Assembly (NCBI GenBank): GCA_001001485.1
Contig: LCKO01000005.1
Coordinates: forward strand, 3,552 to 67,551
Length of the DNA: 64,000 nt
Direction: 5' to 3'
Origin: Candidatus Collierbacteria bacterium GW2011_GWB2_45_17
GTDB taxonomy: Bacteria; Patescibacteriota; Microgenomatia; UBA1400; MFAQ01
Numbering within the stretch: position 1 is the stretch's first letter; the number at the start of each line of letters is the position of its first letter. Both the position numbers and the translations under genes were made by a program. The notes below the pieces were generated by a model. That model did not search any database. It was not told the origin of the DNA and worked only from the letters and a program-made list of their open reading frames with translations. Below are positions 13,472 to 52,337 of the stretch, one piece after another.

Positions 13472-15049
13472 CTACTTTCCAGACGCCTCAATCTCAGTTA
13501 GCATTGCTTTTGATTGCCACAGTTTTGGGTTCAGTCGCAACGCTTCGGTAAAACCTTGTTTAGCTTTTTCCACGTCACCTAGCTTCAGATAGGAGTTTGC
13601 TCGATTGTGAACAGCGTCAGCGTAGAGTGGATTAAGTTCGATTGCTTTGGTAAATTCCTCAATTGATTTCACCAAGTTCCCCTGATTGGCATAGGCGTCT
13701 CCCAAATTATTATGATTTTGCGAGCTACTTGGAGAAATAAATTCCGCCGAAAACCAGAGGGTGTCGGCCGTTCTCCAGTCTCGAATTCGGTCCAGACTTC
13801 TCAAAGACATCGCCAAAACTACCACCCCGACAAAAACATAAAGTGTTTTATTCCATCTTTTATTTGAAAACAAACTATCAAGACAGATAGCTAAAATCAC
13901 CGCCAAACCTGCAAACATCAAATAGGCATATCTTTCAGCTACGAGCGACCCTACTCGAATGGGCAAGAGTAACAACAGTAGAGACGAAATCGAAAATACC
14001 ATCCAAAACCATACGTCTCGATTCCTTTTACTCACCATCATTAGGCACCAACCGACAATTACTGTCAGACTGCCATATTTAAGTAAGTTAGGAAGACTCA
14101 AGTCCAGTTCCGAGTGATACAATGTCAATCCAGCCGGCCACAAATATAACCAAATATAATAACCAATGGTGATCAAAAATTTAGAAATTGGATTGTCCCA
14201 TGATCCAATAGTGGTGTAGTTCTCAATTTTTAAAACCTCAATCCGTTCTCCCAGTACCGACAACATTTCCAACCCTCTCACCAAAGCCAGTCCGAACCAG
14301 GCGATAAGAAGCCACCGTTTTGTTACAAGTTTGCCTCTATACCAGTCCCACCAGAGTAACAACAGTGGTAGAAAAACGTATTTTTCGTTTGACATCAACG
14401 TCATCGTCCACAAGCCGATTTCTGTAAAATTTTTAAGTGGAGTGCGCTTGTCGTCTAGATGAAGATACAAACTCCCCATGGCCAGCATTCCCCCTAACGC
14501 ATAAGGCATACCCGAAATCCACACCACGGACTCCAGAATGGGTGGGGCTACGATAAAAAAAAGACAAGCCATCATGGCTGTTCGAAATGGGTTTGATCTT
14601 CGAACGATCAAAAAAAGCAACGTCGATGTTACCAGATGAAAAACAATATTTGCCAAACGGAAAGCCCAAGGCATCACTCCAAAGGTATTTGCTATCAGAA
14701 AGTGAACCATATTTGCCCAAAATCCGAGAATGGCGTGTGTGGCAAGGCTCCATGTTCCTAATTGGGGGTTGTTCAGAATCGCCGGAATATCATCGGAGAC
14801 AAAGGCGTTTCCCAGGCTGGTAGAAAGTACCAAAAAAGCCATCACCAAAACTACCCCTAAAATTTGTACTTCGTAACTCTGAGGAACAAACATTTCCTCT
14901 TTTATACCCAGTAAATCTCTTGCCTCACTTACCGAAATCTCTAAATGATCGGCAATTTCTACCGCACCAAGCTTATACTTGTGTTTTTTAAACCACTTTT
15001 TCTGTTTAGTACTTAGTTGAATCTCCATTTGCCTCACACCTTCAATCAT
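13472..15049 (-). CDS. GT-C fold PMT/ArnT-like membrane glycosyltransferase with C-terminal TPR repeats
   Basis: More than 10 TM helices, DD loop motif (VSDDIPAIL), three C-terminal TPRs; the N-terminal 50 aa look like a fused HTH and the true start may be the internal MFVPQ. Confidence 0.5.
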   Translation of the reverse strand: MIEGVRQMEIQLSTKQKKWFKKHKYKLGAVEIADHLEISVSEARDLLGIKEEMFVPQSYEVQILGVVLVMAFLVLSTSLGNAFVSDDIPAILNNPQLGTWSLATHAILGFWANMVHFLIANTFGVMPWAFRLANIVFHLVTSTLLFLIVRRSNPFRTAMMACLFFIVAPPILESVVWISGMPYALGGMLAMGSLYLHLDDKRTPLKNFTEIGLWTMTLMSNEKYVFLPLLLLWWDWYRGKLVTKRWLLIAWFGLALVRGLEMLSVLGERIEVLKIENYTTIGSWDNPISKFLITIGYYIWLYLWPAGLTLYHSELDLSLPNLLKYGSLTVIVGWCLMMVSKRNRDVWFWMVFSISSLLLLLLPIRVGSLVAERYAYLMFAGLAVILAICLDSLFSNKRWNKTLYVFVGVVVLAMSLRSLDRIRDWRTADTLWFSAEFISPSSSQNHNNLGDAYANQGNLVKSIEEFTKAIELNPLYADAVHNRANSYLKLGDVEKAKQGFTEALRLNPKLWQSKAMLTEIEASGK

Positions 15050-15171
15050 ATACCAGCCACAAATTGATCTTCATCTTCGTCGCACCGGAATACATCGGAA
15101 CGTACGTGATCTACATTCCCTACGAGACACTACTTGATCTAACTCTCAGGTGTCCAATTATGGGCACCTTT

Positions 15172-15308
15172 TTATAACAAAACTTCTAGTTATTGGCCCT
15201 GCCTGCCGGTTTACCCGCCGGTAGGCGGGTTCTCTCAACACATGGTTCAAATTAACAATCTCGCCATAAAATACCCACTGATTAAGAGAATATTTTACCA
15301 GTGGGTAT
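15172..15308 (+). repeat. 5' GC-rich structured module, copy A (shortened)
   Basis: Shares blocks with the copies at 16327 and 48716 (ttataacaaaa, agttattggc, gcctgccgg, a hairpin CCCGCCggtaGGCGGG, ctctcaacacatgg, cgccataaaata, a hairpin ATACCCACTG/CAGTGGGTAT, ttgagacagcat); ends at the start codon of the downstream gene. Confidence 0.7.
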
Positions 15309-16222
15309 TTGGTACTTGAGACAGCATATGACCTTACGGTCAAAGTGCCTCATACAACAATTCGTGCAATTAATTATCGGTTTATAATTAACAAACATAT
15401 GACTAAAGGTGAAAAACTCAAACATTTGCAAATGTACTTCAATCCCAACACTGTGGAATCATTTTCAAAACTAGAACAAAACGAAAAGAACTACATGGTT
15501 GCGGAAGCAGTAGATAGAATTATTATTAATGAGATAAAAGATATACCCAATCCCTTGATGGTGGCCGAACTAGGGGGAGGAGCTCATCCTGATAGATATG
15601 AGGCTCTCTTTAAAAATTGCTTCAAGAACCTAACGGTCATATCGATTGGATTGATGTTTCAGAATTGATGTTGGAGCAAGCCAAACGGTATTTGCGAGAG
15701 ACAAATCTGGAAGAACGTAACAAAGTAATTTCCTTTATTGAAATGGAAATATTGGACTATCTGAGTACCTTGGGTGACAACAGTCTTGACTTGGTTATTA
15801 TGAAGTATACTTTTGAACACATTGAGAATATTGATCAACTATTTTCATTACTTAGTCACAAACTTAAAAAAAATGGTAGGTTTGTTGCCACTCTGAGCAG
15901 TCTTAGTCCTCAACTAAAAAGTTCATCTACAAATGCACGATTTCTTTACAATGGTCAAGAATTTCCTCTAGATGAAACTAGAGAAATGACAGATGGTGAC
16001 ACTTTTACGATTCGTTTCTATAAACAATCCGGAAACCCCAGTGCGGGACATTTGGAAGGCGCAGAGACAACAAAATATTATCATTCAGAAAATAAGATGA
16101 AAGATCTTTCTCGGAAATACAACCTTGATATTCAGGTTGGTGATTGGAAAGAGATCGAAGGTGTTAGTCAAGGCAATCTCGAACAACTAAGCTTGGGAGT
16201 CTTGGTACTTAGAAAAAGATAA
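15309..16222 (+). pseudogene. Class I SAM-dependent methyltransferase interrupted by a 1-nt frameshift
   Basis: ORF 15309..15668 carries motif I (VAELGGGAHP); a second ORF starting at the track's TTG at 15617, in another frame, carries the post-I 'IDWIDVSELMLEQAK', motif II LDLVIMKYTFEHI and motif III KKNGRFV; the frames switch near 15630-15650. Confidence 0.5.
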
Positions 16223-16304
16223 ACAACTTACGGGAGAGTTAAAAAAGCCCTTCGCATCGCTCCGTGCGTGGGCGGGCGCACGGGCGATATCCCAGAAATC
16301 TGGG
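16218..16304 (+). repeat. 3' module: conserved GC hairpin (copy 1)
   Basis: gataaacaacttacgggagagttaaaaaagcccttcgcatcgctccgtgcgtgggcgggcgcacgggcgat is near-identical to 19483..19553; stem ATCGCTCCGTGCG/CGCACGGGCGAT; followed by the hairpin CCCAGAaatTCTGGG. Confidence 0.75.
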
Positions 16305-16326
16305 CGAAACTTCTTTGAGGTGAGGT

Positions 16327-16846
16327 GTTACAACGAAATTCGAACTTATTTTCGGGACCATTACTAGTTATTGGCTCACCGCTCGGCAAAATTGCCTCGC
16401 GGTTCGCCAACCCCGCCTGCCGCGGGGTATACCGTCGCGCGACACCACTGCCTGCCGGCAGGTCACCTCCAACTGCGGTTGTCAGTGAGCCATACGAACT
16501 CGGTATCCCGCCCTCGTCGTCAATGTGAGTTTCGATACTTCGAACCAAAGCAATCTCACTCCACTGACTCTCGGTCGGAATGAATTTCTCTACGAGCTAG
16601 CGCCAGCTATCGCTGTCGCATCTTTATGTTCGTCCGCCTAGGCGGACGAAGCTCTCAACATATGGCTCGAATTTCAATCTCGCCATAAAATACCCACAGA
16701 TAGGAAACCTATTTTATCAGTGGGTATTAAATCCTTGAGACAGCATTGGCCTATGGGCCAAGTGCTTGCTTCGCAGGCACAGATTCAAGATAGCGACTGG
16801 TTTATAATGTGCGTAAACAATAATAACAAACCCTTTCATTCTAACT
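16327..16846 (+). repeat. 5' GC-rich structured module, copy B (full length)
   Basis: About 520 nt, GC-rich, homologous to 48716..49239 in conserved blocks, with sequence-variable hairpins between them; abuts the ATG at 16847. Confidence 0.8.
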
Positions 16847-17518
16847 ATGAATATAGACGAATTAATAATTAAACTCTCAATAGGTGATAAGCAAGAAATA
16901 AAAGAGGCAATTTGTTATATTGAAAAATTACCCAAAATAAGCAAAGAGAGAGTTCCTTCTGAGTACAAAGAATTACTGTTTTGGGCATTTAGAAATTATA
17001 GTTGTGTAAAAAGCTCGGTGCACAAGGTTGCTATTCTCAAGGGACTCAAATCACCATTTATGTACCTAGGGGCAAGGTATTATGAAGAATGTTCGGAATT
17101 TTTACTTCAAACCATACAAAGTTCGGACGGCAATATCAGAGAGCAAACCTATCATGCAGTCAATTGGTTTCTGACAGATATTACACCAAATGAGTTGTCC
17201 AGAAGAAAGAAAGATTATGAAAGACAGAAGGGTTGGTTGGTTGACTTTGTCATCAGATTAAACCAAGTTGCCAAAGAACACAAAGTCGAAGCAAAGGGGC
17301 TGCTTTATCTGAACGAAATGAGACCTTGTCCGTACAAATCGATCCAAAAAATACTAAGAAGAATTCTTACTAGCGAATGGTATCTGGAGATTATTCACCT
17401 GGCAGGATACGTTGAGCACCCTCACACACTGAGATTTTTGAAGATGAAAGATATGATTTTTGGGAAATTACTCCGCTTCAACTCGAACTTCACGAAACGC
17501 AATTCACCATGGAGATAA
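16847..17518 (+). CDS. Hypothetical protein (all-alpha, 223 aa)
   Basis: Long ORF directly after module B; no recognisable motif. Confidence 0.5.
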   Translation: MNIDELIIKLSIGDKQEIKEAICYIEKLPKISKERVPSEYKELLFWAFRNYSCVKSSVHKVAILKGLKSPFMYLGARYYEECSEFLLQTIQSSDGNIREQTYHAVNWFLTDITPNELSRRKKDYERQKGWLVDFVIRLNQVAKEHKVEAKGLLYLNEMRPCPYKSIQKILRRILTSEWYLEIIHLAGYVEHPHTLRFLKMKDMIFGKLLRFNSNFTKRNSPWR

Positions 17519-17540
17519 GAAAGGGTATAAAATAATCCTG

Positions 17541-17729
17541 ATGGACGAGAAGAAAACTAAATTTTACCAGTCTTACGCGAACCTTCCTCTAGAACTGCGT
17601 TCAGAGATATGCATCGTCATTGACGGTGAGCCGATAACATGGAATATAGCAAAGTTCGAGCTAGATAATGGTACAACCAAAGGACTTGAGATTCTTCAAA
17701 AATTATTTGATCTAAACATTCTAAAATGA
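17541..17729 (+). CDS. Hypothetical small protein (about 62 aa)
   Basis: Track ORF 17460..17729 overlaps the upstream gene; the internal ATG at 17541 (MDEKKTKF) is the more likely start. Confidence 0.35.
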   Translation: MDEKKTKFYQSYANLPLELRSEICIVIDGEPITWNIAKFELDNGTTKGLEILQKLFDLNILK

Positions 17730-17959
17730 CGCAAAAAATAACTGATGATGAAATAAGGAGCTTGGTTATCGAAAGACTCAAGTCTATCTCGGATGAATCA
17801 AGCTTGATGATTGGTGGCGATAAAAAACTTTCAAAGTCAGACATGATAAAAAGTGTCCAAAATGGTGACGATACGGGAAAAAAAATCATCGATATGCAAA
17901 TGACATATCTGAGAGATCTGGCGAGTGGAAAATTGATGGAAAATATAATGTCACTTTAA
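17726..17959 (+). CDS. Hypothetical small protein (77 aa)
   Basis: ATGA overlap with the upstream ORF; co-oriented, tightly packed operon. Confidence 0.4.
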   Translation: MTQKITDDEIRSLVIERLKSISDESSLMIGGDKKLSKSDMIKSVQNGDDTGKKIIDMQMTYLRDLASGKLMENIMSL

Positions 17960-17963
17960 AATT

Positions 17964-18605
17964 ATGGCCGGAATTATTATCACTCGGCCAAACCACGATC
18001 AAATTACCACCTATATTTCTTTATGGTCAGAGGCAGTGATTTTGTTCGCCAAAACAAAAGGGCACTCCATATTCGATTTGTTTAGCAAGAAAGCAGATCG
18101 AAAGTCGTTAGAACAATATCTTACAACCAACAATCTAAGTTTTTTATTTCTGAACGGACACGGATCTTCAGATGAAATTTGTGGGTACAACGATGAAGTC
18201 TTACTCGACGATGAAACCCAACCCACTCTCATTCTAGGTTTAATAATATACGCCAGAAGTTGTAATGCCGGTGAAAATCTAGGTCAGATATTAGTTACCA
18301 AGGGAGTCAAAGCTTTTATCGGTTACACAAAGTCTTTTTCTTTTGCTACTAGTAATAAATTTGTCTTCAGACCCAAAGAAGACCCACTAGCTAGATTATT
18401 TCTAGAACCCTCAAATCTTGTGGCAACCACTATCATCAAAGGGAACACTGTCCAAGAAGCCCACCAAAGGTCAGTATTGGAGATGAGAAAGACGCTTTCC
18501 GAAATGATTCTGTCCAATATTCCAAATAAAAAGGATTACGCATTTGCGCTTTACAACAACATGCTTGGTCAGACTGTAATTGGGGACGGGCAGGCCAAGA
18601 TATAA
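17964..18605 (+). CDS. Caspase-like clan CD cysteine peptidase (C14/CHAT-like core)
   Basis: His block 'FLFLNGHGSSDE' and Cys block 'LIIYARSCNAGE' lie 48 residues apart, each after a hydrophobic beta-strand; an N-terminal hydrophobic strand precedes them. Confidence 0.5.
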   Translation: MAGIIITRPNHDQITTYISLWSEAVILFAKTKGHSIFDLFSKKADRKSLEQYLTTNNLSFLFLNGHGSSDEICGYNDEVLLDDETQPTLILGLIIYARSCNAGENLGQILVTKGVKAFIGYTKSFSFATSNKFVFRPKEDPLARLFLEPSNLVATTIIKGNTVQEAHQRSVLEMRKTLSEMILSNIPNKKDYAFALYNNMLGQTVIGDGQAKI

Positions 18606-18611
18606 GACAGT

Positions 18612-19397
18612 ATGGATTTAATTGCAGATATTAAAGATGTAGTATTTTTCCAAGATTTCTTGGCATTTTTAAGGTATCTTGAAAGACAACCAATTTCCAA
18701 AACAGTGAAGGGTAACATATCCAGAAAAGACATTGTTTCTTTGGCTGACACAATGAAGTGTATTAAAGATAGAATTGCTGAATATTCTAAATATGACTGG
18801 AAAATAGTCGGCGAATGGCAGTTAAAGGATATCGACAAAATCAAGAAAATAGCCGAGGTAATGTTTTTGACCTACAACAGAAAGGAAAAATTGCTTTTAT
18901 CAAAAAACGGCAGAGGTTACATTAACCATAATGATAGGTTGATTCAGTACAAAGAGATGGTCCTTCACTATTTTGAGAGATTGAGTTGGGACTATTTTCA
19001 TCCAAGCATGGATACAAGGAACAGTATTCCATTTTTGGATGTTCTCCAAGCAAGTCAAAATATTTTGTGGCGAATATTTTTATCAAACGGAACAAAATGG
19101 ATTGAGTTCAAACAATTTCAAGAATCGCTAATAAACAACTTTTGTATAGATGATTGTATCGATTCAGAGGATACTTACAATGGAGCATATCAGGCGGATA
19201 TAGAACACGGATTTCTTCGTCCTCTACTTGAGTTTGGCTGTATTGATACTGAGACTGAAGTAATTTCGCAACGTTTAGAATTTACTAGAATAACAAAATT
19301 TCGACCTACAAATCTTGGTTTGTATATTTTTAGAGAAGAAGTAGAGAATTCTCTCTACACAGGTACTTGTCCCATCAGAGATTTGTGGAAAAAATAA
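18612..19397 (+). CDS. Hypothetical protein (261 aa)
   Basis: Last gene of the 5-gene island; no recognisable motif. Confidence 0.5.
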   Translation: MDLIADIKDVVFFQDFLAFLRYLERQPISKTVKGNISRKDIVSLADTMKCIKDRIAEYSKYDWKIVGEWQLKDIDKIKKIAEVMFLTYNRKEKLLLSKNGRGYINHNDRLIQYKEMVLHYFERLSWDYFHPSMDTRNSIPFLDVLQASQNILWRIFLSNGTKWIEFKQFQESLINNFCIDDCIDSEDTYNGAYQADIEHGFLRPLLEFGCIDTETEVISQRLEFTRITKFRPTNLGLYIFREEVENSLYTGTCPIRDLWKK

Positions 19398-19482
19398 GGC
19401 GCAAAAAGTCGCGCGACCGGATACCACTGGCGAAGATTTGTGAATCTTCGCTAAAAACATCGGCTCGAACTACTTTTTGAAA

Positions 19483-19569
19483 GATAAACAACTTACTGGA
19501 GAATTAAAAAAGCCCTTCGCATCGCTCCGTGCGTGAGCGGGCGCACGGGCGATGGGTCAGAGTACTGAC
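19483..19569 (+). repeat. 3' module: conserved GC hairpin (copy 2)
   Basis: gataaacaacttactggagaattaaaaaagcccttcgcatcgctccgtgcgtgagcgggcgcacgggcgat, then the hairpin GTCAGagtaCTGAC and a T-run; lies between the island and the convergent tRNA-Glu. Confidence 0.75.
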
Positions 19570-19585
19570 GATTTTTTCTTAAAGG

Positions 19586-19658
19586 TGACCCCGGGCGGAT
19601 TCGAACCGCCGATATTCAGGATGAAAACCTGACGTCCTAACCACTAGACGACGGGGCC
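19586..19658 (-). tRNA. tRNA-Glu(TTC)
   Basis: Manual fold: acceptor GGCCCCG/CGGGGTC, anticodon loop TTTTCAT, T-loop TTCGAAT; coordinates +/-2. Confidence 0.85.
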
Positions 19659-19663
19659 GTGAG

Positions 19664-19737
19664 TGGGTCAGCCGGGACTCGAACCCGGGACACCCTGCTT
19701 AAAAGGCAGGTGCTCTAACCGACTGAGCTACTGACCC
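19664..19737 (-). tRNA. tRNA-Lys(TTT)
   Basis: Acceptor GGGTCAG/CTGACCC, anticodon loop CTTTTAA, T-loop TTCGAGT. Confidence 0.85.
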
Positions 19738-19943
19738 ATCTTAATATTTTAATCGAACTCGCGACACTTCCGCAAAGCGGAATGCTCTAACCTCCGCCAG
19801 AGGCGGATCAGCCTTTGGCTAAGACTGAAGCTATCCTGTCCCGATCTATCGGGATGACCCAACAAACCACGCTCATATTTTATCATTTTCTCTGGCTAAA
19901 ATAAAACCTCAATCGAACAGTTCTGGTTGTGTAGAATGTAGAT

Positions 19944-20414
19944 ATGAAGATTTTAGGCATCGATCCTGGAATAGGTAGGTTGGGGTGGGGGATAGTCAGC
20001 CATGATAAAGGGGTTGACAGCTATATTGATTCCGGTTGTTTTGAAACACAGGCTAACTCGGATCTGCCGGAAAGGCTCCTCAAAATCCACGACTTTATTC
20101 AAAACTTGATCAATCTTCATACTCCAGACGCTCTTGCCGTTGAATCCCTCTTCTTCGAAAAAAATGTCAAAACAGCTATCGATGTGGCCGCGGCCAGAGG
20201 TGTAATCTTACTGGTGGGTCAGCAATCAGGCTTGGCGATCTCCCAGTACACCCCCCTTCAAGTCAAGTCTTCTCTTACCGGCTATGGTCAAGCCGAAAAA
20301 AGCCAGGTGGAGTTTATGGTGGGCAAGATTCTTCATCTAAAAGAGAAAATTAAACCGGACGACGCCGCCGATGCAGTGGCCATTGCTCTCACCCACGCCT
20401 TTCGGGTTAGATAA
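19944..20414 (+). CDS. ruvC: Holliday junction resolvase RuvC
   Basis: N-terminus MKILGIDPGIGRLGWGIV, catalytic Asp/Glu pattern, 156 aa. Confidence 0.85.
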   Translation: MKILGIDPGIGRLGWGIVSHDKGVDSYIDSGCFETQANSDLPERLLKIHDFIQNLINLHTPDALAVESLFFEKNVKTAIDVAAARGVILLVGQQSGLAISQYTPLQVKSSLTGYGQAEKSQVEFMVGKILHLKEKIKPDDAADAVAIALTHAFRVR

Positions 20415-46019: not shown

Positions 46020-47350
46020 TTAATCCTTTTCGAGAAAGAATTTGGTTTATTAGAGGATTCATTAAAAAATATTCCATACAGATCATCCTTAGTCTTGTGG
46101 TAACCGTCACGATAGCTCTTTTGGGTACCTTTTTTCTATCAAAAATTCCCGAGAAAAGGTCAATCTATCGGATTGGAATTGTCGGCCAATTTGGCTCCGG
46201 TCAGCTACCTCCGTACATTATCAATTTTCTTAAAGCCGGACTTGTTACCTTAGATAGCAAGCACGAACCTCAACCAGGATTAGCCGAAAAATGGGATATT
46301 AGCGATGACGGAAAAACCTATACTTTTTATCTCCGTTCGGGTCTAAAGTGGAACGACAGCAAGGCGGTAAATGCTACCGATATTAAGATTTCTATTCCCA
46401 ATATTGTGGTCGAAACCGTTGACCCCAACATCATTCGTTTTAAAATTCCCACCAAATTCTCACCCTTTCTGTCACTGTTAAATATTCCTCTTTTGAGCTC
46501 AAGTGGAAAAATCATCGGCGACTACGATATCCGTCTCAAGCAAAAAAGCTCCGGCGTCATCTCCCAAATTACTGTCAATACATCAAACAAGGTGTTAAAC
46601 TTCAACGTTTTTCAGACTCCCAAACAAGCCATCACCGCCTTCAAACTGGGTCAAGTTGACATGGCTCTCGCTCTCCCTTCCGAATACGAATCGGACGTCG
46701 TCAAATATGGAAAAATTCAAAAGCAAATTGATTTAAACCGAGTGGTAACTCTGATCTTTAATCAGCAAGATCCCAATCTGAAGGATAAAAATGTTAGGCA
46801 AGGTATCGCCTACAGCCTAAAGGATAAAACCCTTGGTCAGACAGAGGCTTTAACCACTATTAGTCCGGTTTCTTGGGGCTTCAATCCTCTGGTAAAAACC
46901 TACCCTTATAATCTTCCGAGAACCAAGGAACTAATTAAAACTGCGGTGATCTTGGAACTCGCTACCACCCCAGAACTTCTCTCGGTTGCCGAAAATATTC
47001 GAACACAGCTAAACTCAGATAAAATTTCCATCAGTACCAAGGTTGTTTCGTCTACCCCTGAACAATTTCAACTATTCTTGACTCCCTACAATATCCCTTC
47101 CGACCCGGATCAATATCGCGACTGGCACTCAACCCAGGCAACCAACATCGGTCGGGGGTCGGACGAAAAAATCGATAAACTTTTAGAAGACGGCCGTATA
47201 ATATTAGATCAAAAAGAAAGAAAGCGAATTTACTTTGATTTCCAAAAAACCTTCTCCGAAGAACTTCCCGCTTTAGTGCTTTATCATCCCTCAACCTTCG
47301 ATCTGGCCAGAAGAGAATCTCTTTTTCAAATCATCAATAGCGGTAATTAG
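46010..47350 (+). CDS. ABC transporter substrate-binding protein, family 5 (peptide/nickel type) with N-terminal TM anchor
   Basis: 'GLAEKWDISDDGKTYTFYLRSGLKWNDSKAVNATDI' matches the SBP_bac_5 signature region. Confidence 0.65.
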   Translation: MEMINPFRERIWFIRGFIKKYSIQIILSLVVTVTIALLGTFFLSKIPEKRSIYRIGIVGQFGSGQLPPYIINFLKAGLVTLDSKHEPQPGLAEKWDISDDGKTYTFYLRSGLKWNDSKAVNATDIKISIPNIVVETVDPNIIRFKIPTKFSPFLSLLNIPLLSSSGKIIGDYDIRLKQKSSGVISQITVNTSNKVLNFNVFQTPKQAITAFKLGQVDMALALPSEYESDVVKYGKIQKQIDLNRVVTLIFNQQDPNLKDKNVRQGIAYSLKDKTLGQTEALTTISPVSWGFNPLVKTYPYNLPRTKELIKTAVILELATTPELLSVAENIRTQLNSDKISISTKVVSSTPEQFQLFLTPYNIPSDPDQYRDWHSTQATNIGRGSDEKIDKLLEDGRIILDQKERKRIYFDFQKTFSEELPALVLYHPSTFDLARRESLFQIINSGN

Positions 47351-47431
47351 TGGGCGGGGAGGGACTCGAACCCTCATGAGTTGCCTCGCAGCGTTCTGAA
47401 CACTGTGCGTCTACCATTTCGCCACCCGCCC
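47351..47431 (-). tRNA. tRNA-Leu(CAG), class II
   Basis: Acceptor GGGCGGG/CCCGCCC, anticodon loop TTCAGAA, 13-nt variable arm, T-loop TTCGAGT; abuts the stop codon of the upstream gene. Confidence 0.85.
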
Positions 47432-47476
47432 AACCACACATATTATCTCATTATTCTTGGTATAATTAACAGGCAT

Positions 47477-47549
47477 GCCGAGGTAGCCAAGGTAGTCACG
47501 GCGGGAGTCTGAAAAACTTCAGATAAGTGTGCAATTCACTTCCTCGGCA
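47477..47549 (+). tRNA. tRNA-Phe(GAA)-like, non-canonical T-loop (TGCAATT, G55)
   Basis: Perfect 7-bp acceptor GCCGAGG/CCTCGGC followed by ACC; anticodon stem GGAGT/ACTTC, loop CTGAAAA; 4-nt variable loop; T-stem AAGTG/CACTT. Confidence 0.5.
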
Positions 47550-47574
47550 CCGTTCTTGTTAAAATATTACGTAT

Positions 47575-47648
47575 GCGGGAATAGCTCAGTTGGCTAGAGC
47601 GTCTCCTTGCCAAGGAGAAGGTCGAGGGTTCGAATCCCTTTTCCCGCT
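47575..47648 (+). tRNA. tRNA-Gly(GCC)
   Basis: Acceptor GCGGGAA/TTCCCGC, discriminator U, anticodon loop TTGCCAA, T-loop TTCGAAT. Confidence 0.9.
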
Positions 47649-47678
47649 CACTTTGATTCTAAATCAGTTCATTATTAT

Positions 47679-47762
47679 GCGCGGGTGCTGTAATGGTAGC
47701 CAGGCTAGCTTGAGGTGCTAGTGCCCGTAAGGGCGTGGAGGTTCAAGTCCTCTCCCGCGCAC
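47679..47762 (+). tRNA. tRNA-Leu(GAG), class II
   Basis: Acceptor GCGCGGG/CCCGCGC, anticodon loop TTGAGGT, long variable arm, T-loop TTCAAGT. Confidence 0.85.
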
Positions 47763-47773
47763 AAATAGAAATG

Positions 47774-47846
47774 GACTCTTAGCTCAGTTGGTTAGAGCGC
47801 CTCGTTTACATCGAGGAGGTCGAAGGTTCGAATCCCTCAGGGTCCA
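47774..47846 (+). tRNA. tRNA-Val(TAC)
   Basis: Acceptor GGACTCT/AGGGTCC, anticodon loop TTTACAT, T-loop TTCGAAT, one T-stem mismatch. Confidence 0.85.
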
Positions 47847-47866
47847 CTTGATATAATTAACCATCC

Positions 47867-48694
47867 ATGAGCACATCTCCGACCGAGTTCGAAAAATTTC
47901 TCCTTAAGGAATATTTCAGGCTTGGCTCCATCAACAAAGTTTTTACCGCCCACCATTTAGATCTTCCCATTTCCTTCGCCGGTTACGCCCGCTTACTCAC
48001 CAAATTTAGCATCATCAAATCTGCTGGACCAAATAGTCGATTTTCAGAGTCATTAGACATCTTAACCAAACTCAGCAGTTACAAAATTCCTCTTGAAAAA
48101 GTCTATCACCGTTTCGCACCTCGTAGGATCCAAGTTTCCGTCAATACCTTACACCGCATTCTTCACTACACTAGGCTTGGCCTTACTAGGCGTCAGGGGA
48201 CTGCATTATTGATTACTTCAAGTCAGGACTCCCAAAGTTTCTTGACTGGTAGAGAACAAAATACGCCCAATTCCCAATTGGGTAAGAGGGGAGATCTCGC
48301 ACTACCCATGGGACACTCTAGAACCGGAGAAAACCCCAGAGATGCCATCGTCCGTGTGCTACAGCAAGAAGTCTTCACCGATCAAACCATTGAAGGACAT
48401 TTCCCTTGGAAAATTGTTCCCGATCATCCTCAACCGGTCATGTATATCAGTATTGCCGACATTAAGGTCACTGTTTATCATCTTATCTTTGACCACGATT
48501 TTCAATTCTCCAGTTTCAAGCTAAATACTCTCAAATATCGCAACCTAAATCGTCTCCTAACAGATAATCTCCGCCCGGGAATCGAGGATATTCTTAAACA
48601 ACATGCCGGTCTCCTCAAAAATACCAAGAGAATTACGGTTCCTGAATTTAGTTCCAAGTTGAACTTGGCCTTGCTGAAAGTCAAAGATTCATAA
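47867..48694 (+). CDS. Hypothetical protein (275 aa), possible degenerate Nudix-like box
   Basis: 'GHSRTGENPRDAIVRVLQQEV' loosely fits GX5EX7R...E, but the catalytic Glu residues are replaced. Confidence 0.4.
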   Translation: MSTSPTEFEKFLLKEYFRLGSINKVFTAHHLDLPISFAGYARLLTKFSIIKSAGPNSRFSESLDILTKLSSYKIPLEKVYHRFAPRRIQVSVNTLHRILHYTRLGLTRRQGTALLITSSQDSQSFLTGREQNTPNSQLGKRGDLALPMGHSRTGENPRDAIVRVLQQEVFTDQTIEGHFPWKIVPDHPQPVMYISIADIKVTVYHLIFDHDFQFSSFKLNTLKYRNLNRLLTDNLRPGIEDILKQHAGLLKNTKRITVPEFSSKLNLALLKVKDS

Positions 48695-48715
48695 AAAAAT
48701 ATGATTCTGTTGTCT

Positions 48716-49239
48716 GTTATAACGAAATTCGAACTTATTTTCGGGACCATTACTAACTTATTGGCTCACCGCTCAACACTTCGTGTCTCGCGGTTCGCCA
48801 CCGCCTGCCCTGCCGGTCCGCCTTTGGCGGAGGCGGAACCACTTGCGCGCGAGAAGCGGTATCCCGCCCTCATCGTCATTGCGAGGTTCGGTACCCCAAA
48901 CCGTGGCAATCTCACTCCATTCGGATTCGGTCGGGATGATTGCTCTTACGAGCAAGCGCCAGCATTCGCTGTCGCATCTATATGTTCGTCCGCCTGAGGC
49001 GGACGAAGCTGTTCTCAACATATGGCTCAGAACATCGTCATTGCGAGGAATGAAATGACGAAGCAATCTATATAGATTGCATTTCCTCGCCATAAAATAT
49101 CAGATAGTTAGGAGTGTATTTTACTATCTGATATTTAGTGATTGAGACAGCATTGGCCTAGCGACCAATGTGCCTGCTTTGCAGGCACAAGAAATATATT
49201 TTGAACTTGTATAATTACAATTATGTTGAAAAAAATAAT
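48716..49239 (+). repeat. 5' GC-rich structured module, copy C (full length)
   Basis: Homologous to 16327..16846 (first 55 nt nearly identical; blocks ctcgcggttcgcca, cggtatcccgccctc, gcaatctcactcca, cgctgtcgcatct, GTCCGCCtgaGGCGGAC, ctcaacatatggctc, cgccataaaata, ttgagacagcattggcc, GTGCCTGCtttGCAGGCAC); the internal hairpins change sequence while keeping their pairing. Confidence 0.8.
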
Positions 49240-49854
49240 ATGATTAAATTCGTTTATTTTGATGTTGGTGGAGTAGTTGTTAAGGACTTTAGTGGCACAA
49301 ACAAATGGAATGAGTTGAAAAATGGTATGGGGATAAAGCCCAATCAAGAGGTAGTATTCGATGAGATATTTGATATTTATGAACCAGAGGTTTGTATTGG
49401 CAGAGATGTGGAAACTTTAATTCCATTATTAAACACAAAACTATATTTGAGTTTGCCAGAAAACTATTCATTTCTTTTGGATTTTGTTAATCGCTTTGAA
49501 AGAAACGAATCAATCTGGCCAATTATCAAAAGAATCAAAGAGAGATATAAAGTTGGACTTTTGACCAATATGTACCCAAACATGTTGAATCAGATTTATA
49601 AGGCTGATCTTATGCCAGATACAAAGTGGGATGTGATTATAGATTCCAGTATCGAGAAAGTCAGGAAACCTCAAATCGAAATGTTTAAGTTGGCTGAAGA
49701 CAGATCAGGGTTCAAGGGGGAAGAAATACTTTTTATAGAAAATGGCAAAAAACACATTGAGGCCGCAAACGAATTCGGATGGCAAACTTTTCTTTACGAT
49801 CCGTCATTTACTGTAGAGTCAAATAAGAGCTTGGAAGAAACGCTTCTCAAATAG
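49240..49854 (+). CDS. HAD-superfamily hydrolase (atypical motif I DVGG)
   Basis: 'KFVYFDVGGVVV' motif I-like, motif II 'VGLLTN', Lys and FIENG motifs III/IV; the ATG at 49240 is chosen because the track start at 49168 lies inside a module hairpin. Confidence 0.55.
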   Translation: MIKFVYFDVGGVVVKDFSGTNKWNELKNGMGIKPNQEVVFDEIFDIYEPEVCIGRDVETLIPLLNTKLYLSLPENYSFLLDFVNRFERNESIWPIIKRIKERYKVGLLTNMYPNMLNQIYKADLMPDTKWDVIIDSSIEKVRKPQIEMFKLAEDRSGFKGEEILFIENGKKHIEAANEFGWQTFLYDPSFTVESNKSLEETLLK

Positions 49855-49877
49855 AAAATAGCCAAATTTCCACCTTT

Positions 49878-49935
49878 TGAGCTCTGGTGGGCGGGCGCGC
49901 GGGCGACTACCCCGAAAACGGGCGGGGAATCCCTT
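49878..49935 (+). repeat. 3' module: degenerate GC hairpin (copy 3)
   Basis: ggtgggcgggcgcgcgggcgac shares the GTGGGCGGGCGC(A)CGGGCGA core; then the hairpin CCCCGaaaaCGGGCGGGG; lies between the HAD gene and the convergent tRNA-Gln. Confidence 0.55.
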
Positions 49936-49939
49936 TCTG

Positions 49940-50011
49940 TTGCCGAGCTAGGATTCGAACCTAGGATATCCTCCTTCAAAGGGAGGCGTCCTACCACTAG
50001 ACGACTCGGCA
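49940..50011 (-). tRNA. tRNA-Gln(TTG)
   Basis: U1:A72 acceptor TGCCGAG/CTCGGCA, anticodon loop CTTTGAA, T-loop TTCGAAT. Confidence 0.85.
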
Positions 50012-50145
50012 ATACTGCCTATATTTTACAACGTACTTGGCTTTAGTTGGGGATTTTGACACAAACAACTGACTGTACAGAGCAAAGTTTCAATAGGCGG
50101 GACATCCACTAAAAACCGCCCATGTAATCACAGGCGGTCGTAAGC

Positions 50146-51222
50146 TTAGTTAAGGAACAAAATGTCATAGTTGAAAAATGAATCCTTATTTTCAAGAACT
50201 GGGGTTTCCTGTCCGCTCGACAGGTCGTACTTATACAAATTGGTGTGCCCAAAGATTTGAGCATCAGTCCGGAATTGTTTCTCAAAGAGAATGAAGGTCC
50301 CGTCCAAAGACCACGCAGGGGAGCTCCCTTCGGCGACTATTTTCGGATCGGAGCCGTCGGAGTTCGCCATATAAACAGAACCAACTCCCTCAGGTGTATA
50401 ACCGGTATAAGCGAACCTACTACCATCCTGGGACCAGACAATATCACGAGCCTCCTGGTTGATGAGAACTTTCCGACCGGATCCATCGAAGTTAATTTGA
50501 ACAATGGTGTCATTCAAGTAGCTGGCGAAAATCAGGGTACCGCTGGGGCTAATTGCTTGGGAAACGGCCTTGTCGGCGATCAGATTCATATATAACAGTG
50601 AGCCCTCGTCCAGTACCATGTGGTATAGCTTGTTTCCTTCGCCTTCCCAGTTTGAATTAAAAACGATATCGTATATTCCGTTTTTGACTACCGGGCTCCA
50701 GACAAAAGACATGACATTGAACCGATCACTGCAAGAACCGGTGGGGGGCAAGTCATACTCTGAGCAATTTATGGTATAAACCCAATTCATAGTGTCCAGG
50801 CACCAGTTGTCAGAACCGTCTGAATTCATGATGCAGAAGCCACCCTTATTGGTTCCAGTGAAGTAGGCAATATATTTGCCGTCAGGGGAAACGGTTGGAT
50901 TGAACTCGTTGACCATATGGGTATTTGTAAGGTTGGTCTTTTTACCAGATTTGAGATCTAGTACCCAGATGTCGCCATTTCCCTGGTTGTTTTCCTCGTC
51001 TTCGGAAGCCACATAAGCCAGCCTCCTATCAGGAAAAAGTGAGGGATTCCAGCCATTTACTACTAGTTTAACTGTTTGGCTGGAGTCGTGCTGAACAATA
51101 GTTTGGTCGGTGAAATCGCCGGTAGCGTCATAGGACACCGACAGGAACCTGTAACTCGGTGCCTGAGAACAGGAAAACAGAGCAATAATCACCAACAAAA
51201 GACTTGATATGCGTTGTTTCAA
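50146..51222 (-). CDS. Lipoprotein with TolB-like beta-propeller (PD40 repeats)
   Basis: Lipobox LFSC, repeated 'Y...SPDG..I.F' WD40-like PD40 motifs. Confidence 0.6.
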   Translation of the reverse strand: MKQRISSLLLVIIALFSCSQAPSYRFLSVSYDATGDFTDQTIVQHDSSQTVKLVVNGWNPSLFPDRRLAYVASEDEENNQGNGDIWVLDLKSGKKTNLTNTHMVNEFNPTVSPDGKYIAYFTGTNKGGFCIMNSDGSDNWCLDTMNWVYTINCSEYDLPPTGSCSDRFNVMSFVWSPVVKNGIYDIVFNSNWEGEGNKLYHMVLDEGSLLYMNLIADKAVSQAISPSGTLIFASYLNDTIVQINFDGSGRKVLINQEARDIVWSQDGSRFAYTGYTPEGVGSVYMANSDGSDPKIVAEGSSPAWSLDGTFILFEKQFRTDAQIFGHTNLYKYDLSSGQETPVLENKDSFFNYDILFLN

Positions 51223-51289
51223 GTTGATCCTCCATGAATCTTTGATTTGACAATTTTAGAGAACAGTCAGGTGAATAATAACACGGCCG

Positions 51290-51650
51290 AAGCCAAATGT
51301 CAAGGTTATAGGACGAGAGCGCCGAATAACATTTTCTACACGTCATTTCGACCAACCTGCCCGCAGGCGCTAAAGCGCAGCTTTTGCAGGCGGGAGTGGA
51401 GAAATCCCATTCCACGAGTATGAGATCCTTCGACTTCGCTCAGGATGACGTTGGTGGAGGGAGATCTCCCACTTCTGGGATCAACGACCCCGACTACGCT
51501 CGGGATGGCGAGGCCGCGTCACCGCCTCTACGGGATCTCGCCAAGGGCGATGACCAAAGGCGCTGGTCGGCAATAACCCCTATATTTTATAACACCGGAG
51601 TAAACATTCCCCGCTACCAGCGCCAACTCAGGTGTTGAAAACAAAGGCCC
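51290..51650. repeat. GC-rich non-coding-looking region with internal direct repeats
   Basis: ccttcgacttcgctcaggatgacg and ccccgactacgctcgggatggcg are similar direct repeats; cacgtcatttcgacc resembles the CGTCATTGCGAG family; GC content is far above that of flanking genes. Confidence 0.5.
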
Positions 51651-52337
51651 GATCTGGAAACTGGAACCAAAGAGCACTCCCACTAATAAACCATAAAATA
51701 TTTGTGCCGACCTCCTCGGCGGGGTTGTCAGCGGTTCTGTGAGCATAATTGTTCCAAAAAAGAAGATCGGCCAAGAAATAAATATTTGAGAATACAGTTC
51801 CACCACATCTACTCCCTTAATCATTCCTAACACAGACACGGTCGTTACCGCCCCCATAAAAAAAGTTAAAAACAAATTAAGCCGCCTTAATTTTCGAAGG
51901 ACAAGTATTCCAATCACCATTACCGCCGGTAGCATCAGTCCACTTCCCACCCACCAAACAACCGACCCAAATTTCAATAAACTCAAAATTAAAAGAGAGA
52001 TGGCCGCTGGATTTAAAATATGTTTCTTCTTGATTACAAAGACATATTTTGATGAAATAGCTATCAAGCCTGCCAGCGCGACGACTGATAGATCGACGGG
52101 GGAAAGCACTAAAGTTAAAATAAAAGCTGTAATCAAAGTCGATTCAATGTTTGTCTTTATTTTAAGCAAAAACGAAAGAATTATATTCGTCGTCACACAG
52201 GTAAGACACAAGACAGCTGAAGATAACAGTATCTCCCAGCCTGTATAAGGCAGACTTCCCAAAAATCCCAAAACTGTAGCGTAGCCCAGGGTAGTCAATA
52301 GGCCATAAAGCATCAATTTTCTTAGCATAAAATACAT
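51528..52337 (-). CDS. RnfD/NqrB-family-like polytopic membrane protein
   Basis: Multi-TM; 'FGTIMLTEPLTTPP' resembles the RnfD/NqrB 'FFMxTDPxTSP' motif; start taken at MYFMLRK (52337); 3' end uncertain because the ORF runs into the GC-rich repeat. Confidence 0.4.
   Translation of the reverse strand: MYFMLRKLMLYGLLTTLGYATVLGFLGSLPYTGWEILLSSAVLCLTCVTTNIILSFLLKIKTNIESTLITAFILTLVLSPVDLSVVALAGLIAISSKYVFVIKKKHILNPAAISLLILSLLKFGSVVWWVGSGLMLPAVMVIGILVLRKLRRLNLFLTFFMGAVTTVSVLGMIKGVDVVELYSQIFISWPIFFFGTIMLTEPLTTPPRRSAQIFYGLLVGVLFGSSFQIGPLFSTPELALVAGNVYSGVIKYRGYCRPAPLVIALGEIP

Follow-up and report, generated by a model that had tools for sequence, protein, structure and literature searches.

A probable stack of serine-recombinase cassettes with hairpin-rich ends beside tRNA genes in a candidate-phyla-radiation bacterium

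Two kinds of described mobile element come closest to the locus considered here. In the staphylococcal cassette chromosome (SCC/SCCmec), a large serine recombinase (LSR) inserts the element at the 3' end of a conserved housekeeping gene, rlmH; cassettes lie in tandem, many of them lack a recombinase, and their cargo is rich in defence and accessory genes. Ccr recombinases mobilise neighbouring recombinase-less SCC-like cassettes in tandem (PMC11470126). Islander-type islands and tandem SGI1 integrate into the 3' end of a tRNA gene and restore its last nucleotides, and two accounts of tandem tRNA islands place the newest island against the tRNA gene and older, decayed ones farther off (PMC4383910, PMC2297512). 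The locus that we analyse lies in a 64-kb stretch, hereafter the window, of contig LCKO01000005.1 from Candidatus Collierbacteria bacterium GW2011_GWB2_45_17, and it holds three units (A, B, and C), each with a hairpin-rich 5' module, a cargo of one or a few genes, and a short 3' block. We consider it probable that the locus is a stack of small LSR-made integrative cassettes at tRNA 3' ends, with the hairpin module, less certainly, as a cis-acting part made of folded DNA.

The likeness to both groups has limits. The LSR concerned is distantly similar to CcrB, XisF, and SPbeta SprA, and its best NCBIfam similarity is to CcrB, at 97 bits against a cut-off of 900. Here, however, the target is a tRNA 3' end recognized through a T-loop motif rather than rlmH, the LSR reading frame ends in the antisense tRNA, each cassette has a hairpin array of 130-480 nt beside one arm (P') of its attachment (att) site, the LSR gene lies between inverted att-like repeats and can flip, and the host is a candidate-phyla-radiation (CPR) bacterium. 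In the tRNA islands, the integrase is of the tyrosine type and a displaced piece of the tRNA gene remains as a direct repeat, whereas here the enzyme is a serine recombinase, the repeat consists of a 6-8-bp core plus the recombinase tail, and the internal junctions are attP-like. The system is a variant of the serine-recombinase integrative cassettes and not a member of Ccr/SCC, the integrons, or an Rfam family. In the literature searched, we found no precedent for a one-strand, DNA-type hairpin array beside a P' arm and an invertible recombinase gene. A first-pass annotation, made from the letters alone, had set the pattern apart from integrons, CRISPR arrays, diversity-generating retroelements, and insertion sequence (IS) ends; that separation holds, but the locus is not unprecedented, being akin to serine-integrase islands and SCC-like arrays.

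The recombinase was recognized through relatives of the 3' block. A pattern search with two invariant blocks retrieved 5 genome loci and 58 metagenome loci (loci are given L numbers), among them one Candidatus Collierbacteria genome; L024 is 99.3% identical to the window. When module, 3' block, tRNA genes, and open reading frames (ORFs) were mapped in the relatives, the 3' block was often found to overlap the end of an ORF of ~500 aa with Resolvase, Recombinase, and Zn_ribbon_recom domains (L057, L021, L039, and L045; also P0001-P0120), a combination that identifies the product as an LSR. The LSR of L057 ends ...GRNFFEV and then reads on through antisense tRNA-Glu (TPAGLEPAIFRMKT*). By tblastn, residues 422-470 of this protein match window positions 16158-16322 (71%) and LSR residues 407-484 match 19396-19629 (78% over 78 aa, with two in-frame stops), where the relic's frame likewise runs on as antisense tRNA-Glu. 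The LSR of L045 matches a Gln-type tail (WAGARATTPKTGGES) at 49888-49956 (78% over 23 aa).

The 3' modules of the window are thus the last 17-78 codons of LSR genes, that is, the P arm of the att site, and not RNA. All three relics are on the plus strand: relic A (16158..16323) has the last ~49 codons and the core AGGTGA at 16318-16323, relic B (19396..19588) has codons ~407-470 and the same core at 19583-19588, and relic C (49888..49942) has the last ~17 codons of a Gln-type LSR and its core at 49935-49942. As nucleotide blocks, 16206-16323 and 19471-19588 are 92% identical over 83 nt, with a short third copy at 49887-49942. The first-pass annotation had the number of copies right, but what it took for a free-standing GC-hairpin module is a protein-coding relic. 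No intact LSR of this family is encoded in the window, which has C-terminal relics only; its units are recombinase-less derivatives, with all three recombinases lost. In the LSR tail, a small hairpin that follows the GC hairpin and precedes the core (16290-16317, 19555-19582, and L067 5860-5895) changes sequence and keeps its pairing (CCCAGAAATCTGGG, GTCAGAGTACTGAC, TCCGAAAATTTCGGA), inside both the P arm and coding sequence. The 3' module was also considered as an intrinsic terminator of the tRNA operon (GC hairpin plus GCGAAGGGCTTTTTT, minus strand); the scan made no such call, and this could be a secondary role only.

One LSR tail is found with two partners. It is joined either to a tRNA gene (...TTAAAGGTGA|CCCCGGGCGG, 19583-19598) or to a module (...TTTGAGGTGA|GGTGTTACAACG, 16318-16335), and the left neighbour of a module is in turn either an LSR tail or unrelated host flank. 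The core, AGGTGA for the Glu type and the 8-nt TTCTGTTG for the Gln type, is present at all three sorts of junction: tail|tRNA, tail|module, and flank|module. Dyad symmetry (CGAAAcTTCtTTG / CAAcGAAaTTCG) surrounds it, and CGAAACTTCTTTG and CAACGAAATTCG, the arms on either side of the tail|module junction, form an inverted repeat. For tRNA-Glu and tRNA-Gln alike, the B' arm on the tRNA side consists of the core, 10 nt, and the T-loop sequence ATTCGAAC, and the P' arm on the module side consists of the core, 14 nt, and ATTCGAAC, so that in the P' arm the motif lies 4 bp farther out. Such an outward shift fits the half-sites of serine integrases, attP compared with attB. From these arrangements we take tail|module to be attP-like, tail|tRNA to be attR, and flank|module to be attL; the first 25-40 nt of the 5' module form the P' att arm. 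This reading would explain why the first ~40 nt are the most conserved part of the module and, through the shared T-loop motif, how one element family uses two different tRNAs. Because the core holds the last tRNA nucleotides, the element restores the tRNA end. An origin of the module's 5' end from a tRNA fragment was rejected: relative to a displaced tRNA end, ATTCGAAC is shifted by 4 nt, and it is better conserved than other parts of the module, for which reasons it is read as a P' half-site. In L045, the LSR stop (1780) is separated from the module (684) by a segment of ~1 kb with a 290-aa ORF, placed precisely at the att core; the segment is bounded by inverted repeats of ~24 bp (AGACCGTTGCATTTTGGTCACCTG / CAGGTGACCGTTTTTGCAACGGT) and a direct repeat, CAGAGTGTTG, and looks like an insertion into the attachment site.

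Evidence of movement comes from unit B. Contigs that encode an identical RuvC were compared at the tRNA-Glu site and proved to be window-like (L064-L066), to lack unit B (L067 and L069), or to carry different genes, DUF305 and DUF6448, ahead of that same tail (L068). At AAGGTGA|CCCC in L067, unit A's tail meets tRNA-Glu directly. To the left of the core, the tails of A and B have ~30 nt that do not match, which places the breakpoint within the 6 bp of the core rather than in the 83-nt homology. Unit B is a discrete insertion of 3,265 bp (16324-19588) that is exactly absent, at the core, from L067 and L069. Together with the att half-sites, this base-precise junction in strains that differ by unit B supports the earlier suggestion of a cassette-type mobile unit targeting tRNA-proximal sites. 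Unit A lies farther from the tRNA gene and has a decayed module and a broken methyltransferase, from which we take it to be older than B; distance coupled with decay is the usual accretion pattern at an integration site. For unit C at tRNA-Gln, no presence/absence polymorphism was seen among the contigs read.

The target of unit B is the minus-strand tRNA-Glu(UUC) gene at 19584..19658, the last nucleotides of which (TCACC) lie inside the core and the T-loop motif of which forms the B' arm; the target of unit C is the minus-strand tRNA-Gln(UUG) gene at 49939..50011. Both were called by ARAGORN and Rfam, as was the minus-strand tRNA-Lys at 19663-19737 that follows tRNA-Glu. The tRNA genes are those given in the first-pass annotation, which had each cargo and its 3' module followed by tRNA genes; the 3' module of unit A leads instead into module B. 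Tandem cassettes with a core at each boundary are thus seen in units A and B at tRNA-Glu, and similar arrays are present in L021, L036, L051, and L061.

Intact relatives show host flank, core, P' arm with hairpin module, variable cargo, LSR, core, and convergent tRNA in succession. Stacking could then proceed as follows. An incoming circle would carry a P|P' site (for unit B, the junction ...TTCTTAAAGGTGA|GGTGTTACAACGAA...), and the chromosome would offer P|B' beside the tRNA gene. Exchange at the core would put the new unit next to the tRNA gene, leave P|P' within the array, and recreate P|B', which would let cassettes accumulate beside the tRNA gene much as SCC arrays do. The outcome proposed matches the map in the window and in L021, L036, L051, and L061. 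Since each cassette has a complete pair of att half-sites, a recombinase acting in trans could insert or excise it; recombinase-less cassettes could be mobilised in this way, with the LSR as the putative catalyst of integration and excision between these sites.

The second component of the units is the hairpin module itself. In the window (GC 0.436), the repeated 5' block and the repeated 3' block each occur three times, and in a shuffle control the block counts were never as high as in the real sequence. The three 5' modules of the first-pass annotation were recovered by alignment and covariance model at 15150-15357 (A), 16324-16782 (B), and 48713-49190 (C). The conserved part ends directly after the GTGCCTGC..GCAGGCAC hairpin, past which 55 aligned copies lose all similarity; each ATG is preceded by 41-64 nt that are AT-rich, differ with the cargo, and carry a TGnTATAAT-like promoter, so the module does not run up to the start codon as had been thought. 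Nor is its GC content far above background: it is moderately raised, at 0.50-0.52 (0.43 in copy A), and the contrast looks large because the cargo is GC-poor (0.35-0.36).

Beyond the P' arm, the array spans ~430 nt. Read on the plus strand, it begins with a long hairpin, TTGGC-TC-ACCGC-TC-variable hairpin-TC-GCGGT-TC-GCCAA, and a GCGCGC stretch, followed by the central hairpins ATCCCGAC/GTCGGGAT, TTGCTC/GAGCAA, GCGCCAGC/GCTGTCGC, and TTCGCCACAA/TTGTGGCGAA. A three-way junction comes next, in which TCTCAA/TTGAGA encloses TATGGC/GCCATA and a 13-bp hairpin with two alleles, and the array closes with two terminal hairpins, TTGGCC/GGCCAA and GTGCCTGC/GCAGGCAC. RNAalifold gave a poor structure on an automatic MAFFT alignment, and helices were then defined by hand and refined with covariance models. 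Two models, R1 (built on the 3' domain) and R2, recovered 76 and 70 copies, respectively; the family has more than 70 copies in related genomes, with the same hairpins in the same order and invariant linkers. Within the window, R1 matches at 15232-15357, 16652-16782, and 49012-49190 only. Pairing is kept in 94.7% of cases (71 distinct copies) and 94.4% (54 copies), compared with 29-63% when partners are slid. Double changes affect 31 of 38 and 22 of 28 pairs, values reached in none of 500 shuffles, although alignments fitted to the model and related copies make these covariation figures overstate independence. Transversion-type swaps in helices are many and clear, and the covariation of the hairpins originally named was borne out.

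Some copies have optional hairpin units of ~45 nt within loops, of two types (TCGTCATTGCGAGGAATGAAATGACGAAGCAATC... or TTTGTCATTCCGGGCTTGACCCGGAATC...): the window at ~49035-49080, L001, L013, L016, L027, L035, and L058 have one type, and L018, L020, L046, L051, and L052 have the other. These units behave like small palindromic mobile repeats.

Whether the array acts as DNA or as RNA, and on which strand, can be approached through its non-Watson-Crick features. Structured RNAs normally tolerate G.U far better than A.C. Among ~3,300 paired cells, G.U occurs 40 times on the plus strand and A.C 57 times, the latter being equivalent to G.U on the minus strand (~1.7% of pairs), and none of the 66 pairs has a conserved wobble. 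The G.U-tolerance signature of structured RNA is missing on both strands. On the minus strand, which is the tRNA-sense strand, the loops are GAA, GGA, GTA, GCA, GATA, GACA, GCAA, GTAA, and GAAA, nearly always closed by C-G; the commonest is the GAA triloop, and the commonest tetraloops, GATA and GACA, are not GNRA. A conserved CxT mismatch of the plus strand is G.A on the minus strand, and four conserved TC/TC internal loops become tandem GA/GA there, in 24 of 27 matched copies. Both d(cGNNAg) tetraloops and tandem sheared G.A pairs in a Py-GA-Pu context are stable DNA motifs. The same is true of the d(GNA) triloop, which with a C:G closing pair is exceptionally stable in DNA (PMC3201870). These strand-specific loops and G.A features argue that the minus strand is the folded strand. 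Folding with DNA parameters does not discriminate the two (-96.5 and -88.4 kcal/mol, with similar z-scores). Taken together, we put DNA at a little better than an even chance, and RNA well below that, with the remainder left to no function at all.

A structured leader or noncoding RNA, the other suggestion of the first-pass annotation, finds no support in these data. A plus-strand RNA could be a leader or riboswitch-like regulator of the cargo or, in the excised form, the 3' untranslated region of the LSR mRNA, a retroregulator across attP of the lambda sib kind. Such an RNA would suit the strong folding of this strand (z -6.5 to -6.8), the compensatory changes, the single U.G pair in copy B, the position of the module directly 3' of the LSR stop in attP-like junctions, and its place upstream of cargo, the first downstream ORF being co-oriented in 38 of 55 distinct contexts. 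That ORF is convergent in the other 17, however, and a non-conserved spacer with the cargo's own promoter separates module and ORF, from which it follows that the module is not a leader. No conserved promoter or terminator was found (consensus scans in or beside the modules called none and were uninformative), the plus-strand loops read UNC or UNNC and the internal loops are pyrimidine-pyrimidine mismatches, the strand-specific motifs being antisense to the cargo, and G.U is not enriched over A.C. A scan against Rfam 15, including GOLLD, ROOL, group I and II introns, ribozymes, and riboswitches, passed only tRNAs, and permissive searches of 15000-20000 (E<=10) and 48600-51800 (E<=1) gave nothing relevant. 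We regard a plus-strand RNA as quite improbable.

An RNA gene on the minus strand is unlikely too, if less so. It would represent a new mobile-element RNA, large and structured like GOLLD and ROOL, which are of similar length (~450-500 nt) and have many helices, and which lie near tRNA genes on mobile DNA, prophages included. The GNRA-type tetraloops, G.A mismatches, and tandem GA would be at home in it, as would the multi-branched architecture with covariation and the folding z-scores of -6.0 to -8.9, and G.U equivalents are slightly more numerous on this strand (57 vs 40). They are still few and none is conserved, though, and the GAA triloops and the non-GNRA GNNA loops (GATA and GACA) with C-G closure fit DNA motifs better. 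Conservation begins abruptly at the first hairpin, next to cargo-specific flank without a conserved upstream promoter, and there is no terminator at the att end. In contrast to GOLLD and ROOL, there was no Rfam match at the thresholds tried, no G.U enrichment, and no conserved transcription signal.

The array might also have no function of its own, as a pile-up of GC-rich palindromes at a tolerated position beside the att site, similar to repetitive extragenic palindromes or miniature inverted-repeat elements, with pairing kept not by selection but by template-switch correction of quasi-palindromes. The optional hairpin units that come and go within loops would agree with this, as would similar hairpin blocks elsewhere in the window (19745-19854 and ~51300-51600) and the equal rarity of wobble pairs and A.C mismatches. 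What makes it an improbable account is the constancy of the array: the same hairpins and linkers recur in order in more than 70 copies, a long-range helix closes the three-way junction, the CxT and TC/TC features are conserved, LSR lineages with no more than 55-60% identity still have the 5' domain, and recombinase-less cassettes retain the array. Least credible, to the point of being nearly dismissed, is that no LSR was involved and that the locus arose by chromosomal tandem duplication and gene replacement, or through an integron- or IS-like system with another enzyme. Direct repeats of 83-115 nt do flank unit B, and the window has no recombinase gene; the repeats, however, are recombinase coding sequence, strains without B break at the 6-bp core with non-homologous flanking 30 nt, and the same architecture is found with an intact LSR beside tRNA genes in many genomes. 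No tyrosine integrase or transposase was found among the ORFs at 12.5-21.6 kb and 45.5-52 kb or in the Pfam-scanned cargo.

We therefore return to folded DNA. More weakly than for the cassettes, we suggest that the ~430-nt array is a cis-acting folded-DNA element on the tRNA-sense strand, neither a cargo leader nor an RNA gene. Hairpins or cruciforms beside the P' arm may assist or regulate recombination; alternatively, the array could be a signal for priming or establishment during a single-stranded stage. What points to a role in recombination or its control, rather than in cargo expression, is that neither att-type copy lacks the 5' hairpin domain, and mainly for this reason we rank a recombination accessory slightly above a priming or establishment signal. 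The latter has counterparts in the Frpo/ssi promoters of plasmid leading regions, the single-strand origins (sso) of rolling-circle plasmids, and the intergenic region of filamentous phages, which are likewise non-coding, orientation-specific, hairpin-rich regions of a few hundred nucleotides on mobile elements, with loops of the stable DNA type. In Frpo, the folded strand is the template strand for the following genes, as it is here (PMC11541004). Unlike these signals, the units have no conjugation, Rep, or phage genes and no sequence similarity to plasmids or phages. By eye, we saw no convincing pair of -35/-10 hexamers in a long stem of Frpo type (the longest stems are 10-14 bp), and a search by eye for DnaA boxes, -35/-10 hexamers within stems, and ssoA CS-6 motifs gave nothing convincing.

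Several observations weigh against the reading of LSR-made cassettes with a folded-DNA module. The window has no intact LSR, and mobilisation in trans is therefore inferred; a P|P' x P|B' exchange differs from the canonical attP x attB reaction of serine integrases; and homologous recombination in the tails, or ancestral absence of B, predicts an identical map, so that the core-level breakpoint in L067 is the sole observation that argues for site-specific exchange over homologous recombination in building the array. For the module, orientation relative to local GC skew shows a weak bias (32 vs 17; 32/49), and nothing indicates that the element is ever single-stranded. The 338 cargo clusters (461 ORFs) contain no Rep, relaxase, or phage gene, and searches of viral contigs (by the pattern and by the LSR protein), GenBank phages, and PLSDB plasmids gave no matches, both of which weaken models of single-stranded transfer. 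GNRA and GNA loops and tandem G.A are found in RNA as well, and the wobble test uses closely related copies, retrieved through the two invariant blocks, in model-fitted alignments.

A more ambitious version of the cassette reading draws on integrons. As there, unrelated one- or few-gene cassettes form arrays with the newest by a fixed site, and as in attC, a structured, recombination-associated boundary element conserves pairing rather than sequence. The folded strand is, by GC skew in the window, the template of the lagging strand, which is also the case for attC. The differences are that crossover, which in integrons uses attC sites of 57-141 nt with R and L boxes, here takes place in duplex-type half-sites outside the hairpins, that the structured region is 4-8 times as long as attC, and that cassettes have their own promoters. 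No IntI tyrosine integrase was found among the ORFs around the two sites or in the scanned cargo, and there is no attI; R and L boxes were not searched for specifically. It is conceivable, although we would not favor it, that a CPR family of LSRs runs an integron-like tRNA cassette system, with conservative P|P' x P|tRNA exchange, an invertible LSR gene, and an array in each cassette that folds as single-stranded DNA and serves an accessory, priming, or establishment function. Such a system would add a new class to the structured-DNA elements, and CPR gene exchange would for the first time show signs of passing through a single-stranded stage.

The recombinase family extends well beyond the loci retrieved with the module. 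At least 7,952 homologous proteins were found at E<=1e-20. Of six members looked up, all 55-61% identical, the loci of the first three (L076-L078) were scanned for tRNA genes; in each, the LSR stop lies inside a convergent tRNA gene (Glu, Lys, and Leu). The tRNA genes whose antisense 3' end the LSR gene enters in intact relatives are those for Glu, Gln, Lys, and Leu. L078 has two such recombinases at two tRNAs within 4 kb. At their far end, the loci with distant LSRs have a P'-like arm and a shorter hairpin module of 130-200 nt that shares the 5' hairpin with TC/TC loops, the GCGCGC stretch, and the ATCCCGAC hairpin. The 3' domain model found no match in them, which suggests that the ancient core of the module is its 5' domain, the other parts being specific to lineages. 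The module accompanies unrelated cargo at the 58 metagenome and 5 genome loci. Cargo across the family is diverse and includes type I and III restriction-modification systems, Schlafen/AlbA_2, HNH, a reverse transcriptase with HTH, transporters, and hydrolases; in the cargo survey, the LSR alone recurs.

Every intact LSR gene examined has, 100-200 nt upstream, an inverted copy of the tail, core, P' arm, and first 100-190 nt of the module (L057 4816-4999; L077 8740-8990; L078 8760-8960; L081 ~9504; also L012, L015, L019/L021, L020, L030, L039, L053, and L076). The inverted copy in L077 hardly differs from the direct one at the far end of the element. The LSR gene is consequently flanked by inverted tails and the cargo by inverted P'-plus-hairpin blocks. 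L081 and L082 are assemblies of one locus, and in their positions 1-898 the LSR gene upstream lies in opposite orientations, with identity resuming exactly at the start of the tail repeat. The LSR gene is an invertible segment that really flips.

CPR bacteria have tiny genomes, and their gene acquisition is little understood. The locus offers a concrete and apparently widespread route, in which cassettes read the universally conserved tRNA T-loop, stack by tRNA genes, lose their recombinase, and differ between near-identical strains. For genome engineering, the practical attraction is that the LSRs are compact and that the genome sequences themselves reveal their att sites. If the folded-DNA function is true, the array would join attC sites, IS200/IS605 ends, and plasmid ssi/Frpo among the few functional DNA structures; if it is RNA instead, it is a new large structured RNA.

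The remaining features of the three units, all on the plus strand, are as follows. The left junction of unit A (15148..15153), compared with the attL junctions of L004, L010, L011, L017, and L057, joins host flank to a degenerate P' arm at a core AGGTG, matching the cores at the two Glu-type tails. Module A (15150..15357) has a diverged 5' end and a deleted central domain; its 3' domain is kept (R1, 103 bits), and R2 gives no match. Cargo A (15399..16222) is a frameshifted S-adenosylmethionine (SAM)-dependent methyltransferase in two overlapping ORF pieces (Pfam Methyltransf_11/12/25/31). Module B (16324..16782) has its P' arm at ~16324-16350 (ATTCGAAC at 16338-16345), then the array from the 5' long hairpin through the central hairpins and three-way junction to the two terminal hairpins, with an R2 match at 16585-16653 preceding that of R1. 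Spacer B (16783..16846; GC 0.31), outside the conserved module, is AT-rich and cargo-specific with the promoter-like TGGTTTATAAT, and cargo B (16847..19397) has five ORFs of 223, 62, 77, 213, and 261 aa, in which no Pfam or PHROG family was found. The left junction of unit C (48705..48712) carries TTCTGTTG, with the second copy in relic C, and is of a type that recurs in L001, L007, L014, L018, L022, L029, and L044. Module C (48713..49190) has a P' arm (ATTCGAAC at 48727-48734) and the array, including an extra hairpin insert of ~45 nt at ~49035-49080, with an R2 match at 48940-49010; cargo C (49240..49854) is a HAD-family hydrolase (Pfam Hydrolase/HAD_2 and phrog_8468). The cargo identities of the first-pass annotation are thus confirmed by Pfam and PHROG: a SAM methyltransferase, five family-less ORFs, and a HAD hydrolase.

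Other parts of the window also hold hairpins. A 110-nt block of three small GC hairpins directly upstream of tRNA-Lys (19745-19854) is missing from the otherwise identical contig L066 (NCBI LCJW01000018), an indel polymorphism. A hairpin-rich intergenic block at ~51300-51600 (GC 0.56), for which Rfam gave nothing at E<=1, could represent either a further hairpin cluster or an RNA gene not yet recognised, and within it 51567-51593 repeats the 5' end and upstream sequence of tRNA-Gln (50006-50032). Finally, a LAGLIDADG-like ORF adjoins an SBP_bac_5 gene in L073 (3982-4827) and L079 (12848-13501), and its place in those relatives corresponds to the five-tRNA cluster of the window (47350-47847).

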